Below, in pieces: positions 1 to 15,961 of a stretch of 64,000 nt of DNA. Position numbers and translations under genes: made by a program. The stretch lies in NCBI RefSeq assembly GCF_053078305.1, contig NZ_CP166879.1. The stretch is one strand, 5' to 3'. How positions within the stretch are numbered: the first letter of the stretch is position 1; each line of letters starts with the position of its first letter. The notes below the pieces were generated by a model that did no database searches, was not told the DNA's origin, and saw nothing but the letters and a program-made list of their open reading frames with translations.

Positions 1-3000
1 ATCCCTCTTCTGTCCGCCTGCTGATTCAGCTTGAGCGTAACGGGCACTGGGTGACGGAGAAGGATATCACCATTAACGGCAAGACCACCTCGCAGTACCT
101 GACGTCTGTGATTCTGAATAATCTCCCTGAGCGCCCCTTTAACATCCGGATGGTCAGGGAGACGGCGGACAGCACCACGGACCAGCTGCAGAACAGAACG
201 CTGTGGTCGTCATACACCGAAATCATCGATGTGAAACAGTGCTACCCGAACACGGCCATTGTGGGGCTGCAGGTGGATGCGGAGCAGTTTGGTGGCCAGC
301 AGCTGACGGTGAACTACCATATCCGTGGTCGCATCATTCAGGTGCCGTCAAACTATGACCCGGAAAAACGCACCTACAGCGGTATCTGGGACGGGAGTCT
401 GAAACCGGCATACAGCAATAACCCGGCCTGGTGCCTGTGGGACATGCTGACCCACCCGCGCTACGGCATGGGAAAACGCCTGGGGGCCGCGGATGTGGAC
501 AAGTGGGCACTGTATGCCATCGGGCAGTACTGCGACCAGACGGTCCCGGATGGTTTCGGGGGAACAGAGCCGCGGATGACTTTCAATGCGTACCTGTCAC
601 AGCAGCGTAAGGTGTGGGATGTCCTGGGGGATTTCTGCTCGGCGATGCGCTGTATGCCGGTATGGAACGGCCAGACGCTGACGTTCGTTCAGGACCGTCC
701 GTCGGATGTGGTGTGGCCGTACACCAACAGCGATGTGGTGGTGGATGATAACGGCGTGGGGTTCCGCTACAGCTTCAGTGCCCTGAAGGACCGGCACACG
801 GCGGTGGAGGTGAATTACACCGACCCGCAGAACGGCTGGCAGACCTCCACGGAACTGGTGGAAGACCCGGACGCCATCCTGCGCTACGGACGCAACCTGC
901 TGAAGATGGATGCGTTTGGCTGTACCAGCCGCGGTCAGGCCCACCGTGCCGGACTGTGGGTGATAAAGACCGAACTGCTGGAAACGCAGACGGTGGATTT
1001 CACGCTCGGGTCACAGGGGCTGCGGCATACGCCCGGTGACATCATTGAAATCTGTGATAACGACTATGCCGGGACCCTGACCGGCGGACGCATCCTGTCC
1101 ATTGATGCCGCCAGCCGCACACTGACGCTGGACCGTGAGGTGACACTGCCGGAAGCAGGGACATCGACGGTGAACCTGATTAACGGCAGCGGTAAGCCGG
1201 TGCGCGTGGACATCACTGCACACCCCGCGCCGGACCGGATACAGGTCAGCGCCCTGCCGGATGGCGTGGAGACATACGGTGTGTGGGGACTCTCCCTGCC
1301 GTCACTGCGTCGTCGCCTGTTCCGCTGTGTTTCCATCCGGGAAAACACGGACGGCACTTTTGCCATCACGGCAGTGCAGCACGTACCGGAAAAAGAAGCC
1401 ATTGTGGATAACGGGGCTCGCTTTGAGCCGCTGTCCGGTTCACTGAACAGCGTTATCCCGCCGGCAGTGCAGCACCTCACGGTGGAGGTGAGTGCCTCAG
1501 ACGGCCAGTATCTGGCGCTGGCGAAATGGGACACGCCGCGGGTGGTGAAGGGCGTGCGCTTCAGTCTGCGCCTGACCAGCGGAAACGGTGAAAACAGCCG
1601 CCTGGTGACCACCGCCATCACTGCCGACACGGAGCACCGTTTCAGTGGCCTGCCTCTGGGGGAATACACCCTGACGGTCAGGGCGATAAACAGCTACGGC
1701 CAGCAGGGCGAACCTGCCACCACCGCGTTCCGGATTAATGCGCCTGCAGCACCGGCCAGCATTGAGCTGACGCCGGGGTATTATCAGATAACAGCAGTAC
1801 CGGTGCTGGCGGTGTATGACCCGACGGTACAGTTTGAGTTCTGGTTCTCGGAGGCAAAAATCGCAGACACATCTCAGGTGGAAACCTCTGCCCGTTATCT
1901 GGGGACAGGCAGCCAGTGGAGCGTCTCCGGCCCGCACATCAAGCCGGGGAAGGATTTCTGGTTTTATGTGCGCAGCGTTAACCTGGTGGGGAAATCTGCG
2001 TTTGTGGAAGCCAGTGGCCGGGCGAGCAATGATGCAGAAGGGTATCTGGGGCTGTTTCGGGAAAAGATAGGAAAACTGCATCTGGCACAGGGGATGTGGG
2101 AGCTGATTGATAACAGCCAGCTTGACAATGAGATGGCGGAGATGAAGACCACCATCACCGAAACCCGCAATGAAATCACGCAGACGGTCAGTAAAACCCT
2201 GGAAGACCAGAGCGCCACCATACAGCAGATACAGCGGGTGCAGACAGACACAAATAACGACCTGGCTGCGCTGTACATGCTGAAGGTGCAGAAAACAAAA
2301 AACGGCATTCCGTATGTTGCCGGTATAGGTGCGGGGATTGAGGATGCTGATGGCCAGCCCCTGAGCAATATTCTGCTGCAGGCGGACCGTATCGCGATGA
2401 TTAACCCGGAGAACGGCAACACCACGCCGCTGTTTGTGGCGCAGGGGAATCAGCTGTTCATGAACGATGTGTTCCTGAAGCGGTTGTTTGCAGTGAGCAT
2501 CACCTCGTCCGGCAATCCCCCGACGTTTTCCCTGACGCCGGACGGGAAACTGACGGCCCGCAATGCTGATATCAGCGGACATATCAGTGCGAACTCGGGC
2601 ACGCTGAATAATGTCGTGATAGCGGAGAACTGTACGATAAATGGCACGCTGAAAGCGGAGAACATTATTGGTGATCTTGTGAAATGTGCAGGGGTGGCTT
2701 TTCCGGTGGATGGTAGTTACCTTGCGAACGGTACACGAACGCTGACGGTATATGACGATCACAGCTTTGACCGGCAGATTATAATCCCGCCGATAATCTA
2801 TGTCGGGTCAAAACAGGAATCCCGTACCAGTAATGACATCTGGACAGAGTGCTTCCTGCATGTTGATCAGAACGGACGCCGGATTTATTCAGGCAGGTCA
2901 GTGACAGAGCCGGGAATTTTCAGCGGGATCATCGATATGCCAGCCGGAGGTGGTCATATCACCCTGAGTTTTACCGTAAGTTCACGACGTCAGAACGGGA

Positions 3001-3077
3001 GTTTTGGCAGTTCACGTATCAGTAACCTTCAGGCGATAGTGGTGAAGAAAAACAGCGCGGGGATCAGTATCCGCTGA
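1..3077 (+). CDS. Phage tail host-specificity protein (lambda gpJ-like), C-terminal ~1000 aa; reading frame is open to the window start, so 5' partial
   Basis: ORF 51..3077 continues in frame without a stop back to position 3; size and sequence style match lambda J-type tail tip proteins; followed by a tail-fibre gene. Confidence 0.85.
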
Positions 3078-3275
3078 ACATCGCGCCCCGGGATTGCCGG
3101 AAGGAGACAAAAACCGTACAGTATGCGCGGGTGCCTTTGGCTGATGGCCGGAGGGAACACCTGAAGGCCGGAAAGACGAAGGCCCCGGACAAACATTCAT
3201 GTTTAACCCGAGGCCTGACTTTCGATCTTCAGCAAATTGAAGGTTAGCGCCTCTCCGTAAAAGGAGCAAGCGTTT

Positions 3276-3416
3276 ATGTCGCAAAAACCGTTAAAAACCA
3301 CCGTGATTTGTACCACGGTAGTGCTCATTATCTGGATCACCCACACTTCACTGTGCGAGTTCCGGTTCCGGATAGCGGGCGCGGAGATTGCGGCGTTCTT
3401 ACAGTGTAAGCAGTAA
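3276..3416 (+). CDS. Hok/Gef-family type I toxin-like small membrane protein (46 aa: MSQKPLKTTVICTTVVLIIWITHTSLCEFRFRIAGAEIAAFLQCKQ)
   Basis: Read directly; below the ORF-track size cutoff. AAGGAG RBS 9 nt upstream of the ATG; basic N-terminus, one TM segment, C-terminal S-L-C-E-x-R/H ... A-A-F-L-x-C-K pattern as in HokA/HokB/Gef. Confidence 0.6.
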   Translation: MSQKPLKTTVICTTVVLIIWITHTSLCEFRFRIAGAEIAAFLQCKQ

Positions 3417-3558
3417 GAAACCGTGGCGTGGGAGAATATCCCCCGCCGACCGGTTGCTGAGGGTGGTCAGCCGGATGGCACCGTTTTAACACCAACAAAC
3501 CACAAATATTACCGCAGGCCGGGAAACCGGTACTGCGGTTTTTTTATGGGGGAAATCC

Positions 3559-5292
3559 ATGACAGTCAGAATATCGGGTGTGCTGAAGGATGGTACGGGA
3601 AAAGCGGTACCGGGATGCACGATAGAGCTGAAAGCGCGCCGCACAACGGAGACGGTGATTGTCACCACGGTGGCGTATGGTCAGCCGGGGGAAACCGGCA
3701 GTTACAGTATGGATGTTGAGCCGGGGTTGTACCGGGTGACGCTGAACACGGAAGGGTACGCGCCGTCATATGTGGGTGACATTCTGGTGAAGGCGGATTC
3801 TGCACCGGGAACGCTGAATAAATTTCTGATGGACCTGGAAGACGCACAGTATTACCCGAAAGCCCTTGCAGAGCTGGAAGCGGTGGCAGCGGAAATCCTG
3901 AAGCGTGCAGAAGCGTCAGCGGCCAGTGCAGAGGAAGCGAAGAAACGGGCAGAGAATGCGCGGGGACCGAAGGGGGATAAGGGAGACACCGGGCCACAGG
4001 GGATTCCCGGGCCAAAAGGCGATACCGGCGAGCGGGGGCCAAAGGGTGAGCGTGGTGAGACAGGGCCACAGGGGCTTCAGGGTGTGAAAGGTGAACGGGG
4101 AGAGAAGGGCGAAAAAGGCGAGCCGGGAGGGCCGGATGCGACGACGGCACAGAAGGGAATTGTGCAGTTAAGCAGCGCAACGGACAGTGATGATGAAACG
4201 AAGGCAGCCACGCCGAAAGCGGTGAAAGCGGCAATGGACAAAGCGGACGGATGCCTGGAGAAAGCGAAAAACGGTGACGATATCCCGGATAAGGTGAAGT
4301 TTCTGAACACCGTGGGAGCAGCCAGAGTATACGGGCGGGACATTCATACGGGGGCCGGTGAATGGACCACGAGTGAGTTTGTCGCCTGGCTGAAAGAAAA
4401 AGGGGCATTTGACCAGCCTTACTGGATGATGAAGGCATCACTGCTTGCGTCAATGAATAAAGTCATCACAGATGTCGGACCGGGAAAACTCAATCTGGGT
4501 GGCTGTGTCATTGAGGTGATGGGAACGTATGAGGCTGCCATAGTCCGGGTCACCATTGGCGAATACGGTGCAACGGGGTTTATTAATGGCACGGTCTGTA
4601 CCTGTACGGTTTACGGCGACACACAGTATTTCCACTGGCGGGTGGATTACAGCACAAAAAACAAACCGGATACGGTCAGCCAGCGGGATGCCAGTACGAC
4701 GCAGAAAGGTGTGGTGCAGTTAAGCAGTGATACTGGCAGTAATGACGAAACAAAGGCAGCCACGCCGAAGGCCGTGAAGGCGGCAATGGATGTGGCAAAT
4801 GAAGCGAAAACAAAGGCAGAAGAGGCTGCAGCAGGAGGTGGTGTTCCCGGTCCGAAAGGAGAGAAAGGTGACCCCGGAGCACAGGGTCCGAAAGGTGAAA
4901 CGGGAGCAACAGGCCCCGCTGGTCCGCGGGGAGCGCAGGGACCGAAAGGGGAGAAAGGCGACCCCGGTCCCAGAGGTGAGCGTGGAGAAACCGGGCCGAT
5001 GGGGCCGCCGGGGGCATCAGGAGATGACGGGAAGAGTCGTGTCATGGGCTTCAGGCTGGGGAATCCGGTAACGTATGAGTTGCAGGAGGGGGACCATGGC
5101 TGGTCAGTTAATCTGGCTGATGGTTCAGTCATTACAGGGCTTTCGGGGAACACTCAGGGCGGCGTCAGCCGTGTTACAACGATTTACTACAGGCCGCTGC
5201 AGATGACGTTTGATGGCTCTCACTGGCGCACCGTTGGTGTTGGTGAGTATGTGTCGTCAGGAGCGCCGGGGCGTGAGTATTTTTCATTATAA
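3559..5292 (+). CDS. Phage tail fibre protein with two collagen-like Gly-X-Y tracts and duplicated phage tail-fibre repeat motif
   Basis: 577-aa ORF after [14 protein letters not shown]... tracts; motif [32 protein letters not shown] present twice. Confidence 0.85.
3964..4131 (+). repeat. Collagen-like Gly-X-Y tract 1 inside tail-fibre CDS
   Basis: About 56 codons of uninterrupted G-X-Y triplets. Confidence 0.85.
4141..4238 (+). repeat. Phage tail-fibre repeat motif, copy 1 (direct repeat with 4696..4790)
   Basis: About 100 bp segment re-occurring about 555 bp downstream at both nucleotide and protein level. Confidence 0.75.
4696..4790 (+). repeat. Phage tail-fibre repeat motif, copy 2
   Basis: Direct repeat of 4141..4238. 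Confidence 0.75.
4834..5025 (+). repeat. Collagen-like Gly-X-Y tract 2 inside tail-fibre CDS
   Basis: About 64 codons of G-X-Y triplets. Confidence 0.85.
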
Positions 5293-5333: not shown

Positions 5334-6005
5334 ATGCACATAAAGAATTTCAGACAATACACGCCGGAAAATCCGGATGTGCCGGGTGCGATGTACCTGA
5401 AATCAGAGGATGGTCAGGACTGGTATGAGTGTCAGTCGTTATTTTCAGCAGAGACGCTGAAGGTGGTTTATAACAGTGCCGGGGTCATTACCGGCATCAG
5501 CAGGGTGGCATCAGTTCTGTGGCCTGTGAATCAGAGTGTGGTGGAGGTGGCGGATACGGAAGAAAACCGCAAAGCTGACATCTCCGGGCGCTGGGGTTTT
5601 GACGGGGAGAAAATCACGGACCTGCTGACCGCGGAGAAAGCGCGAGGGATGAAGGGCGATGAAATTAACGCCTGGCGTAATGCGATGGAAGCGGCGAACT
5701 ACACGTTTGAGCACAATGGGCGTAAATGGGACTACGGGAAGTCAACGCAGACGCGTCTTGAGCCGTCGGTGGCGGCAGCGAAAGCGGGGAAACTGCCGGA
5801 GGCGTTTTTCTGGACGGATGCGGAAAACAATGATGTGCCGGTGACAGCAGACGAGCTTATTGCGCTGAGTGAAGCGGCAGAGCAGGCGATGTTTACCAAA
5901 GGGATGGAAATCCACGTCCGGCAGCGCACCATGAAGAAAGAGCTGGAAAAGCTGACCAGTGAGGATGAGATACTGGCATACAGGGTTGGCTGGGCACAGG
6001 AATAA
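5334..6005 (+). CDS. Tail-fibre assembly/chaperone-like protein (Tfa-like)
   Basis: 223-aa ORF immediately downstream of the tail fibre with GGAGG-type RBS; C-terminal region resembles tail-fibre assembly proteins. Confidence 0.5.
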   Translation: MHIKNFRQYTPENPDVPGAMYLKSEDGQDWYECQSLFSAETLKVVYNSAGVITGISRVASVLWPVNQSVVEVADTEENRKADISGRWGFDGEKITDLLTAEKARGMKGDEINAWRNAMEAANYTFEHNGRKWDYGKSTQTRLEPSVAAAKAGKLPEAFFWTDAENNDVPVTADELIALSEAAEQAMFTKGMEIHVRQRTMKKELEKLTSEDEILAYRVGWAQE

Positions 6006-6317: not shown

Positions 6318-7601
6318 ATGGATTTCCAGTTATATTCGCTCGGCGCAGCGTTAGTGTTTCATGAAATATTTTTTCCTGAATCATCAACGGCAATGGCGTT
6401 AATTTTGGCAATGGGAACCTACGGTGCAGGTTATGTGGCGCGTATTGTCGGAGCATTTATTTTCGGCAAAATGGGCGACAGAATAGGGCGTAAAAAAGTG
6501 CTCTTTATTACCATCACCATGATGGGGATCTGTACCACCTTAATTGGTGTGTTACCGACCTATGCACAGATTGGTGTTTTTGCCCCCATCTTGCTGGTGA
6601 CGCTGCGTATTATTCAGGGGTTGGGTGCAGGTGCGGAAATTTCCGGTGCCGGTACGATGCTGGCGGAATATGCGCCAAAAGGTAAGCGCGGAATTATCTC
6701 CTCATTTGTAGCTATGGGAACTAACTGCGGAACCTTGAGCGCAACGGCAATCTGGGCCTTTATGTTCTTCATTCTCAGTAAAGAGGAACTGCTGGCGTGG
6801 GGATGGCGTATACCGTTCCTGGCGAGCGTTGTCGTGATGGTCTTTGCTATCTGGTTGCGTATGAATCTGAAAGAAAGCCCGGTCTTTGAGAAGGTTAACG
6901 ACAGCAACCAACCGACAGCAAAACCTGCACCTGCTGGTAGCATGTTCCAGAGCAAATCCTTCTGGCTGGCAACAGGGCTGCGTTTTGGTCAGGCAGGTAA
7001 CTCCGGGTTAATTCAGACTTTCCTTGCAGGCTATTTAGTACAGACGTTATTGTTTAACAAAGCAATTCCAACAGATGCATTGATGATCAGTTCGATTCTC
7101 GGCTTTATGACCATTCCGTTCCTTGGTTGGTTATCCGATAAAATTGGTCGCCGGATCCCGTATATTATTATGAATACCTCTGCGATTGTGCTGGCATGGC
7201 CAATGCTTTCTATCATCGTAGATAAAAGCTATGCCCCGAGCACCATTATGGTTGCACTGATTGTGATTCATAACTGTGCGGTGCTGGGATTATTTGCTCT
7301 GGAAAACATTACCATGGCAGAAATGTTCGGCTGTAAAAACCGCTTTACCCGGATGGCTATTTCTAAAGAAATTGGTGGTCTTATCGCTTCCGGTTTTGGT
7401 CCTATCCTTGCGGGTATTTTCTGCACCATGACGGAATCCTGGTATCCGATCGCCATTATGATCATGGCATATTCAGTGATTGGTTTAATCTCTGCGCTGA
7501 AAATGCCAGAAGTGAAAGACCGTGATTTAAGTGCGCTGGAAGACGCTGCGGAGGATCAACCGCGTGTTGTAAGAGCTGCGCAACCTTCCAGAAGTCTGTA
7601 A
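6318..7601 (+). pseudogene. ydfJ: ydfJ, 5'-truncated MFS (metabolite:H+ symporter family) transporter; N-terminal TM segments replaced by prophage DNA
   Basis: 427-aa ORF starts inside the conserved G-x-x-x-R-P-x-G ... GDRIGRKK loop-2/3 motif; in-frame stop 2 codons upstream; prophage genes directly upstream. Confidence 0.8.
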
Positions 7602-7689: not shown

Positions 7690-9150
7690 ATGGGAAATAA
7701 TTTGTTATCAGCAAAAGCGACACTCCCTGTTTATGATCGTTATAACCTGGCCCCAAGAATTGTTCATTTAGGCTTTGGTGCATTTCACCGTGCGCATCAG
7801 GGCGTGTATGCCGATATTCTTGCTACAGAACATTTCAGTGACTGGGGATATTATGAGGTCAACTTAATCGGCGGCGAACAGCAAATTGCCGATTTACAAC
7901 AGCAAGATAATCTTTATACCGTTGCGGAAATGTCGGCCGATGCGTGGACGGCTCGCGTCGTTGGCGTCGTTAAAAAAGCCTTGCACGTACAGATAGATGG
8001 CTTAGAAACCGTGTTGGCTGCGATGTGTGAACCGCAAATCGCGATTGTCTCTCTGACAATCACCGAAAAAGGGTATTTCCACTCTCCGGCGACCGGACAG
8101 TTAATGCTCGATCACCCGATGGTCGTTGCCGATGTACAAAATCCCCACCAGCCGAAAACTGCAACAGGGGTGATAGTCGAGGCGCTGGCTCGCCGTAAAG
8201 CGGCAGGACTTCCCGCATTTACCGTCATGTCATGTGACAACATGCCAGAAAACGGTCATGTTATGCGTGACGTTGTCACTTCCTACGCGCAAGCTGTTGA
8301 TGTAAAATTGGCACAATGGATCGAAGAAAACGTGACTTTCCCATCAACAATGGTGGACCGTATTGTGCCCGCAGTGACAGAGGATACGCTGGCGAAAATC
8401 GAACAACTTACCGGTGTGCGCGATCCTGCGGGCGTTGCCTGTGAACCTTTCCGCCAGTGGGTTATCGAAGATAACTTTGTTGCCGGACGTCCGGAATGGG
8501 AAAAAGCGGGAGCCGAACTGGTTAGTGATGTGCTGCCTTATGAAGAGATGAAGTTGCGCATGCTCAACGGCAGTCATTCATTCCTGGCGTATTTGGGTTA
8601 TCTTGCTGGATATCAGCACATTAATGACTGTATGGAAGATGAACATTATCGTTATGCGGCGTATGGCTTGATGTTGCAGGAACAAGCGCCGACGCTGAAA
8701 GTGCAGGGCGTTGATTTGCAAGATTACGCTAACCGATTAATTGAACGCTATAGCAACCCGGCGTTACGTCATCGAACCTGGCAGATTGCGATGGATGGCA
8801 GCCAGAAATTGCCACAGCGGATGTTGGATTCTGTTCGCTGGCATCTGGCGCATGACAGCAAGTTCGATCTGCTGGCGCTGGGCGTCGCGGGTTGGATGCG
8901 TTATGTCGGTGGTGTTGATGAACAGGGAAATCCGATAGAAATCAGTGACCCACTGTTACCTGTTATTCAGAAGGCTGTACAAAGTAGTGCCGAAGGGAAA
9001 GCGCGCGTCCAGTCATTGCTGGCGATTAAGGCAATCTTTGGTGATGATTTGCCAGACAATTGCTTGTTTACTGCAAAAGTGACGGAAGCGTACTTGTCTT
9101 TATTAGCGCATGGCGCGAAAGCGACCGTGGCGAAATATTCCGTGAAGTAA
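7690..9150 (+). CDS. ydfI: Mannitol dehydrogenase-family oxidoreductase
   Basis: 486-aa ORF, long-chain mannitol/mannonate dehydrogenase family. Confidence 0.9.
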
Positions 9151-15656: not shown

Positions 15657-15679
15657 CATTCATTGAGAAAACTGATGCT

Positions 15680-15790
15680 ACTGTGTCAACGATCCGTTAT
15701 CAGTGCAGGAAAATGCCTGTTAGCGTAAAAGCAAAACACAAATCTATCCATGCAAGCATTCACCGCCGGTTTACTGGCGGTTTTTTTTTT
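15680..15790 (+). ncRNA. mgrR: Putative PhoP-dependent Hfq sRNA MgrR (about 100 nt), ending at hairpin CCGCCGG/CTGGCGG plus T10
   Basis: Strong intrinsic terminator at 15763..15790 with no coding ORF, PhoP-box upstream; 5' end approximate. Confidence 0.5.
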
Positions 15791-15807
15791 CGCCGTCATA
15801 AAAATCA

Positions 15808-15838
15808 GGCCCCTTGTACACAACTGTAACAAGGGGCC
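15808..15838 (-). terminator. Terminator hairpin of mgtS (GGCCCCTTGT ... ACAAGGGGCC, T-rich on minus strand)
   Basis: 10-bp inverted repeat just 3' of the mgtS stop on the minus strand. Confidence 0.5.
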
Positions 15839-15865
15839 GGTTAGGTGAGGGATTATCTCCGTTCA

Positions 15866-15961
15866 TTAGTCATCCCATTTGTGGCTGAAATACGCGGCCA
15901 GAAAACCAGAAAATAAAATTATTCCCAGTACGGCCATAAAAACATTCATATTACCCAGCAT
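15866..15961 (-). CDS. mgtS: 31-aa inner-membrane small protein MgtS (YneM): MLGNMNVFMAVLGIILFSGFLAAYFSHKWDD
   Basis: Translated by hand from the minus strand; not in the ORF track because of size. Confidence 0.85.
   Translation of the reverse strand: MLGNMNVFMAVLGIILFSGFLAAYFSHKWDD

Follow-up and report, generated by a model that had tools for sequence, protein, structure and literature searches.

A putative hok/Sok-family toxin-antitoxin cassette lacking a mok leader frame between gene J and the tail-fibre gene of an Escherichia coli prophage

In a window of 64,000 nucleotides from NCBI RefSeq contig NZ_CP166879.1 (assembly GCF_053078305.1), by which we mean the whole stretch of DNA analysed here, positions 3094-3545 most probably constitute a type I toxin-antitoxin cassette of the hok/Sok family, a moron lying between gene J and the tail-fibre gene in a lambdoid E. 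coli prophage next to ydfJ. We put the probability of this reading at about 85%. The locus is already known, since it has a RefSeq name, a PHROG family and an entry for its peptide in a published Hok catalogue, and the discovery value is small for the same reasons. The cassette is ordinary except that it is without the usual mok leader frame, and only this mok-less state and a hypervariable Sok target make it mildly unusual. The toxin gene, its neighbours and the terminator behind it are placed as follows:

51..3077, plus strand: gene for the phage tail-tip attachment protein J, the upstream neighbour (open reading frame list; RefSeq "gpJ" on a 99.3%-identical locus).
3276..3416, plus strand: hok, a 46-aa Hok/Gef-family toxin gene (profile matches and an exact catalogue peptide).
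3511..3545, plus strand: intrinsic terminator with a stem at 3511-3539 and a run of seven U (RNAfold -21.6 kcal/mol).
3559..5292, plus strand: prophage tail-fibre gene, the downstream neighbour (open reading frame list; RefSeq "prophage tail fiber N-terminal domain-containing protein").

The open reading frame at 3276..3416 begins with ATG and comprises 46 codons, exactly as an earlier preliminary description of this DNA had reported, and its product is MSQKPLKTTVICTTVVLIIWITHTSLCEFRFRIAGAEIAAFLQCKQ (sequence and open reading frame list). AAGGAG, named there as the ribosome-binding site, occupies 3261-3266, and the ATG follows 9 nt further on. The proposal that the peptide belongs to the Hok family was borne out by profile searches. 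Pfam PF01848 (HOK_GEF) matches with an E value of 7.9e-10 and 38.6 bits, aligning residues 10-44 with model positions 8-42 of 42, and PHROG 251 ("MokW-like host killing", category "moron, auxiliary metabolic gene and host takeover") matches over the full length with an E value of 4.4e-20. The Kyte-Doolittle hydropathy maximum at about residues 5-23 is consistent with one transmembrane helix, which had likewise been proposed, and the two C-terminal cysteines claimed for the peptide are C27 and C44. By our own reading, made by eye and without alignment to the logo, the residues C12, T14, L26, C27, E28 and E37 of the peptide are C16, T18, L30, C31, E32 and E41 of the Hok catalogue logo, and its second cysteine, C44, is logo position 48 (Cys or Tyr). 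These matches identify 3276..3416 as a genuine gene of the Hok/Gef family, whose product is probably a membrane toxin.

The suggestion that the peptide is closest to HokA and HokB was loose. HokA is indeed the most similar of the K-12 Hok peptides compared (43% identity, against 35% for HokB and 33% for HokC) and provides the best NCBIfam model (E 2e-9, with the HokA and Hok models both at about 1e-9). However, the 46-aa Hok peptides of prophages are far closer: the identity is 96% to RefSeq WP_000078852.1 ("Hok/Gef family protein") and 65% to the 46-aa lom-adjacent peptide of 933W-type Stx phages. In addition, the peptide misses the cut-offs of both the HokA equivalog NF007290 (37.2 bits versus 89) and the Hok subfamily NF007279 (34.2 bits versus 73). 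It is a divergent Hok rather than HokA, and its nearest relatives are the 46-aa prophage Hok group.

Close relatives of the locus are widespread. A 601-bp query covering window positions 3000-3600 was found in full in at least 118 complete E. coli genomes, with 97-99% identity in the 20 best of these 118, and some match to the same region was obtained in 1,528 of 5,426 E. coli genomes (megablast in both cases). At near-identical loci RefSeq names the gene "Hok/Gef family protein" and places it between gpJ and the tail-fibre gene. The whole spacer is present in phage 1720a-02 (KF030445.1) at 95% identity, where the GenBank record labels the hok open reading frame "hypothetical protein". One IMG/VR prophage contig (L039) is identical to the window over 3088-3611; together with a second cassette copy (L038) it belongs to IMG genome 2617271340, and the Sok regions of the two copies are identical.

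A recent catalogue contains 1,264 Hok peptides (Escalera-Maurer et al. 2026, bioRxiv 10.1101/2025.08.07.668861), and the exact window peptide is entry #1569 in its alignments. The 65% identity to peptide 72_1589 suggests that #1569 belongs to cluster 72. Peptides 72_1589, which is the lom-adjacent peptide of 933W, and 72_1621 were cloned in that study and are absent from its three non-toxic sequences; their toxicity was seen in drop assays on induction (bioRxiv 10.1101/2025.08.07.668861). The same authors describe hok as enriched in prophages, with a role there that is unknown (bioRxiv 10.1101/2025.08.07.668861). A literature search combining hok, tail fibre and prophage returned nothing specific to the position between J and the tail-fibre gene.

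These data also bear on the idea that 3276..3416 is open merely by chance, in a spacer that does not code for protein, its likeness to Hok being superficial. The frame is short, with 46 aa, and its NCBIfam scores stay under the curated cut-offs, as such an accident would have it. Still, it is matched by profiles from three independent libraries and by an RNA covariance model, length and sequence of the frame are conserved over three prophage contexts with dN/dS below 1, and relatives are experimentally toxic. Because of the profile matches and the conservation we regard a chance frame as refuted, its probability being negligible.

The frame of J opens at GTG 51 in its longest form, and the true start of the gene may lie upstream of the window. 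The spacer between J and the tail-fibre gene, which holds the hok open reading frame, is 481 bp long and corresponds to the place where lambda carries lom; the end of the prophage adjoins ydfJ/ydfI of E. coli. The terminator at 3511..3545 closes the moron unit and ends 13 nt ahead of the tail-fibre ATG. Its sequence is kept in phage 1720a-02 but missing from the 933W-type locus. Prophages carry the 46-aa Hok type in three unrelated slots: every window-type copy lies between J and the tail-fibre gene, the 933W-type ones follow lom, and a third type follows a gpD-like open reading frame. The third slot was inspected in one locus only (L010), where we took the frame ahead of hok for a P2-like gpD tail gene; the remaining loci of this type gave no match to any context probe used. 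The preliminary description had regarded the gene as phage cargo, that is, a moron. This view gains support from the PHROG moron category, the insertion in the spacer between J and the tail-fibre gene, a putative promoter of its own, the strong terminator and the three prophage slots, all of which would be in keeping with a moron.

The RNA that would express hok can be outlined from comparison with other hok loci and from predicted folds. Its proposed elements are:

3094..3122, plus strand: putative hok promoter with -35 TTGCCG (3094-3099), a 17-nt spacer and -10 TACAGT (3117-3122), as read from the sequence.
3129..3490, plus strand: predicted hok mRNA, with the 5' end taken from the start of the Rfam leader match and the 3' end at about 3490 after fbi, or else at the terminator at 3545.
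3129..3287, plus strand: hok mRNA leader, a match to Rfam RF01794 (63.5 bits versus a gathering score of 59).
3130..3143, plus strand: tac element, for which minimum-free-energy folds predict pairing with fbi in the full-length RNA and, once the 3' end is removed, with 3177-3186.
3177..3186, plus strand: ucb-like box, the predicted alternative partner of tac in 3'-truncated and nascent RNA.
3246..3275, plus strand: predicted hairpin sequestering the hok Shine-Dalgarno sequence (AAGGAG, 3261-3266), in which CUCC 3253-3256 pairs with GGAG 3263-3266.
3425..3447, plus strand: conserved hairpin in the 3'-UTR of the hok mRNA (3425-3433/3439-3447, 60 homologues).
3468..3482, plus strand: fbi, the 3' fold-back inhibitor element, pairing with tac in the folds.

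The -10 hexamer TACAGT sits 7 nt before GGGUGCC (3129) and aligns with TATAAT of K-12 hokC and with TAAATT of the 933W-type locus. With 8 of 12 consensus positions for the hok promoter and 6 of 12 for the Sok promoter described below, both are weak. A consensus promoter and terminator scan of 2950-3650 reported none: the hok promoter with its 8/12 stayed under the threshold and the terminator at 3511..3545 was missed. We therefore propose the two promoters because of homology rather than consensus strength.

The leader match has an E value of 9e-12 over the whole 64-kb window. Although RF01794 is named "sok", reading the match as Sok itself had to be rejected. In a control with K-12 hokC the model matched the hokC-sense strand and ended at the hokC AUG, with the annotated sokC antisense to it. 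The match in the window is therefore the leader of the hok mRNA and not the antitoxin. More generally, this Rfam family marks the hok-sense leader, and the strand of such matches should not be taken as that of the antitoxin.

RNA 3129-3495 is predicted to fold at -155.7 kcal/mol (z -6.3). For structure counts we used the 60 distinct rows over the mRNA region from a sample of 69 distinct cassettes taken from IMG/VR and phage records; the cassettes were gathered by an exact 24-nt DNA pattern from the hok 3' end, which biases the sample to close relatives. The tac/fbi core, GGUGCC/GGCACC, is kept in 99.7% of cells, and two-sided covariation of this core is absent among the 60 distinct homologues. 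The switch of tac to 3177-3186 is predicted in folds of 3129-3462, 3129-3447 and 3129-3300, and the 5' part of the Sok target (3227-3234) is single-stranded in these truncated and nascent forms. By contrast, the hairpin over the Shine-Dalgarno sequence occurs in every predicted fold, full-length as well as truncated, and its outer helix (3246-3250/3270-3275) is 100% canonical in the 60 homologues. Compensatory changes were found elsewhere: of the nine pairs of the 3'-UTR hairpin, which are 99.4% canonical in the 60 homologues, five show two-sided compensatory changes, and a long-range helix between 3227-3239 and 3450-3462 has three compensatory pairs. The 24-nt pattern forces invariance at 3388-3411, so that the helix 3276-3284/3388-3396 carries no covariation information. 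Among 66 cassette variants homology collapses after 3483, with a pairwise difference of 0.5 from 3484 on; since it is lost right after fbi, the conserved unit spans approximately 3094-3483. Fold-back elements, which the preliminary description had recommended looking for, are predicted in the form of tac and fbi, which would pair the two ends of an RNA whose leader passes the RF01794 threshold.

The same description had found no confirmed antisense RNA. A minus-strand promoter was sought in the leader region and a candidate was found there, TTGCTC/17 nt/TAACCT, together with a terminator-like hairpin:

3241..3269, minus strand: putative Sok promoter with -35 TTGCTC (3269-3264), a 17-nt spacer and -10 TAACCT (3246-3241), proposed from its match to sokW.
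3170..3234, minus strand: putative Sok-like antisense RNA of about 64 nt, with a 5' tail (3234-3217), a GC-rich hairpin (3216-3181) and a U-rich 3' tail, UUCGUCUUUCC.

The coordinates of K-12 sokC map to window 3231..3172. In 933W and Sp5, sokW is preceded by TTGCCT, 17 nt, TAACCT and a further 6 nt before its annotated 5' end. A promoter-less sokW construct abolishes the antitoxin effect (Takada et al. 2021, PMC8621323), and the substitutions made there, as far as we judge from the primers, change exactly the TAACCT hexamer. Within the Sok promoter, GAGAGGCGCTAACCT is kept in at least 90% of 66 homologue rows representing 44 distinct leader variants. Positions 3236-3160 of the minus strand, the predicted Sok region, fold at -34.3 kcal/mol (z -4.35), and the hairpin of the window Sok folded alone at about -19 kcal/mol. 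Hairpins were folded variant by variant, because indels made an RNAalifold consensus on the MAFFT alignment meaningless. The 41 variants, 4 of which fell outside the extraction pattern, yielded 18 distinct hairpin sequences; these fold at -15 to -21 kcal/mol, and their inner stems pair in spite of differing in sequence. The common layout is a variable 5' tail of 18-20 nt, the GC-rich hairpin and a U-rich tail; the U-tract of the window Sok is interrupted (UUCGUCUUU) and poorer than in most relatives. Taken together, these features point to a Sok-like antitoxin gene from about 3234 to 3170. No part of the cassette varies more than the 5' tail of Sok and its target, with a pairwise difference of 0.37 compared to 0.1-0.2 elsewhere, which could mean that the specificity of the toxin-antitoxin pairs diversifies among co-resident prophages.

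If these elements work as in characterised systems, the hok mRNA would start near 3129 and would stay silent as long as tac (3130-3143) pairs with fbi (3468-3482) and the local hairpin hides AAGGAG. Trimming of the 3' end would move tac to 3177-3186 and free the 5' part of the Sok target at 3227-3234. The minus-strand TTGCTC/17 nt/TAACCT promoter would meanwhile supply the Sok RNA of about 64 nt, which would pair with 3170-3234, block expression and trigger decay of the message, as in plasmid R1 and in hokW-sokW. Upon loss of Sok, Hok would enter the inner membrane and depolarise or lyse the cell.

The step at which the window copy departs from this scheme is the translation of mok. Only a remnant of such a frame is left in the leader:

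3199..3240, plus strand: remnant of a mok-like leader open reading frame with an ATG, 13 codons and the stop TGA 3238-3240, recognised by comparison with the sister locus L031.

In plasmid R1, mok begins 58 nt ahead of hok, and Hok is made only if mok is translated as far as the hok Shine-Dalgarno sequence (Le Rhun et al. 2022, PMC9841398). An overlapping mok frame, left unconfirmed by the preliminary description, is absent from the window copy. All three leader frames are closed, the hok frame by TAA 3258-3260 and the other two by TGA 3238-3240 and TAG 3245-3247, and none of the ATG, GTG or TTG open reading frames of the window leader reaches the hok Shine-Dalgarno sequence. In L031, which occupies the same position between J and the tail-fibre gene, the ATG matching window position 3199 opens a 69-codon frame that runs through the Shine-Dalgarno sequence into hok, in the same relative frame as mok of R1. 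Compared with L031, the mok-like frame of the window is broken by TGA 3238-3240 and by an extra T at 3273-3275. The window copy has no mok-like frame up to the Shine-Dalgarno sequence and therefore misses the coupling step needed in R1; its Hok could be made by direct translation, from other transcripts only, or not at all. Across the sample, a leader frame reaching the hok Shine-Dalgarno sequence occurs in 21 of the 69 distinct cassettes, whereas the 46-codon hok is intact in 68, counts that are phylogenetically non-independent. Long leader frames that start at -100 or -103 have no obvious Shine-Dalgarno sequence and are perhaps not real mok genes. By our own reading, mok does not appear to be a maintained feature of the 46-aa prophage Hok group.

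It is conceivable, if doubtful, that the window locus is decaying and translationally dead. Sok and hok mRNA might then be made but Hok never, the mok coupling frame having been destroyed; the locus would then be comparable to the chromosomal hok loci that are inactivated in E. coli K-12, and any function left to it would lie with Sok, which might for instance damp related hok mRNAs from co-resident prophages. Such decay would agree with the stop and the +1 frameshift relative to L031, with the dependence of R1 on mok translation up to the hok Shine-Dalgarno sequence, with the sequestration of this sequence in every predicted fold and with the annotation of K-12 mokA as a pseudogene. Within the clade found between J and the tail-fibre gene, moreover, the hok substitutions are four non-synonymous and no synonymous ones, so that purifying selection is unseen at that short timescale; a sister copy (L071) carries a frameshift in hok, and the identical Sok regions of L038 and L039 in IMG genome 2617271340 point in the same direction. 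Against a dead locus, no lesion is seen in the promoter, tac, fbi or Sok elements. In addition, the counts of intact hok and of leader frames given above, and the lom-adjacent type, in which dN is 0 versus a dS of 0.2 though 10 of its 12 cassettes are without a leader frame reaching the Shine-Dalgarno sequence, argue that hok is maintained without mok.

Between sub-types, dN/dS of hok (codons 1-37) ranges from 0.15 to 0.5. We tentatively suggest that in the 46-aa prophage Hok group purifying selection keeps the toxin gene though mok is usually broken, which would imply a mok-independent way of switching hok on, and that the variability of the Sok tail could reflect diversifying specificity. 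Hok synthesis might initiate directly at the strong Shine-Dalgarno sequence once the local hairpin opens, or late read-through transcripts might be translated during prophage induction.

The latter possibility leads to the question of whether the cassette serves the lytic cycle rather than addiction. On induction, Sok would be lost, or read-through from the J operon would yield hok without its silencing 5' end, and Hok would damage the inner membrane and so aid lysis and phage release. After mitomycin C, phage release is twice as high with the hokW-sokW system of Sp5, sokW is lost and HokW is synthesised in a RecA-dependent manner (Takada et al. 2021, PMC8621323). The cassette of the window lies inside the late tail operon, on the strand shared by J and the tail-fibre gene, and a transcript begun upstream would have no free tac 5' end. 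However, the hokW characterised there is a different, HokC-like gene of 51 aa at another position in the phage, and the read-through idea is pure conjecture on our part. We consider a lytic role in place of addiction unlikely. For the hok/Sok cassette as we propose it, prophage maintenance, abortive defence and help with lysis are all possible roles.

The value of the locus lies in what it offers for experiments. A common prophage Hok type supplies natural mok-less alleles, with which the universality of mok coupling in hok/Sok systems can be tested. Likewise, the role of hok in prophages, be it maintenance, defence or help with lysis, can conveniently be studied on the cassette in this slot next to J.

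Among known loci, the one encoding WP_000078852.1, that of phage 1720a-02 and catalogue entry #1569 all represent the gene described here, at the junction of J and the tail-fibre gene; the window peptide (T13, T24) differs from WP_000078852.1 (I13, S24) at residues 13 and 24. A further relative is the lom-adjacent locus of 933W/Sp5-type phages (933W L0129; phage 75/02 gp62, "MokW-like host killing"; peptide 72_1589), with 76% nucleotide identity to the window from the promoter to fbi. Like the window gene, its hok encodes 46 aa; leader, Sok promoter core and 3'-UTR elements agree as well, and a leader frame up to the Shine-Dalgarno sequence is again mostly missing. Unlike the window copy, it occupies the slot after lom in a short-tailed Stx phage, and the Sok 5'-tail and target sequence as well as the sequence behind fbi differ.

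We also considered whether this 76%-identical 933W locus is the published hokW and rejected the idea, as the primers and the 933W annotation place the HokC-like hokW elsewhere in the phage. The hokW-mokW-sokW locus (933W and Sakai prophage 5; PMC8621323) shares with the window Sok promoter the identical -10 TAACCT and the 17-nt spacing, with TTGCCT instead of TTGCTC at -35. In contrast to the window product, HokW is a 51-aa HokC-like peptide (MKQQKAM...), encoded elsewhere in the phage and accompanied by an annotated in-frame mokW. Despite the family label "MokW-like" in databases, the window gene is not hokW. The hokW-sokW system of Sp5 is the sole prophage Hok system with a tested function.

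With hok/mok/sok of plasmid R1 (Le Rhun et al. 2022, PMC9841398) the window shares, by prediction, the tac/fbi pairing, the tac/ucb switch, the sequestered Shine-Dalgarno sequence and the antisense Sok. R1 has mok and the window none, and the hok AUG lies at +174 in R1 but at +148 in the window, whose leader is shorter. K-12 HokA resembles the window peptide in its 43% identity, the C-terminal AAFL-x-CK motif and the two cysteines, and mokA of K-12, annotated as a pseudogene, is non-functional as mok appears to be in the window. On the other hand, K-12 hokA is disrupted by IS150 and lies outside any prophage tail region, whereas hok of the window is an intact frame within one.

The match to the Rfam model RF01794, named 'sok antitoxin', covers window 3129-3287 on the plus strand, that is, the leader on the hok strand as far as the hok AUG. 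In the K-12 hokC control, the same model matched at 902-1054 on the minus strand, which is the hokC strand and opposite to the annotated sokC. An RF01794 match marks the hok-sense leader, not the antisense Sok RNA.

Among the 66 homologue rows, no part of the cassette varies more than the target of the predicted Sok 5' tail (window 3217-3234): its pairwise difference is 0.37 vs 0.1-0.2 elsewhere, and it is flanked by nearly invariant blocks. This alignment pattern may reflect toxin-antitoxin pairs diversifying in specificity, although the Sok region is identical in L038 and L039, two copies that reside together in a single IMG genome.

The following features lie downstream of hok (window coordinates):

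3511-3545, predicted strong intrinsic terminator (folding at -21.6 kcal/mol, with a seven-U run)
3559-5292, tail-fibre ORF
5334-6005, DUF4376 tail-fibre-assembly-like gene, right end of the prophage
6318-7601, ydfJ, adjoining the right end of the prophage
7690-9150, ydfI, chromosomal flank beyond ydfJ

The tail-fibre start codon is located 13 nt downstream of the predicted terminator. This terminator lies within the presumed late tail operon. Passage of late transcription would require antitermination. Within the tail-fibre ORF there are collagen-like G-x-y runs, and an internal repeat, TTQKG[IV]VQLSS... (16 further residues not shown), occurs twice. In K-12, the Qin prophage lies in this ydfJ/ydfI neighbourhood. 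A full-length Rfam match to the Hfq-binding sRNA STnc560 (RF01407, 276 bits) was found at 15657-15872 on the plus strand.

On an IMG/VR contig (L012), the hok 3' motif is present twice (7835-7858 and 8331-8354, spaced 496 bp), suggesting that hok cassettes are arranged in tandem there. In 933W-type Stx phages, the annotated hokW/mokW/sokW is accompanied by a different hok locus, which encodes 46 aa and follows lom (hok loci of these phages: 58177-59106 in 933W, L129; 2671-2811 in comparison locus L003). The lom-adjacent locus corresponds to L0129, 'hypothetical' in the original 933W record and 'MokW-like' in some later records.
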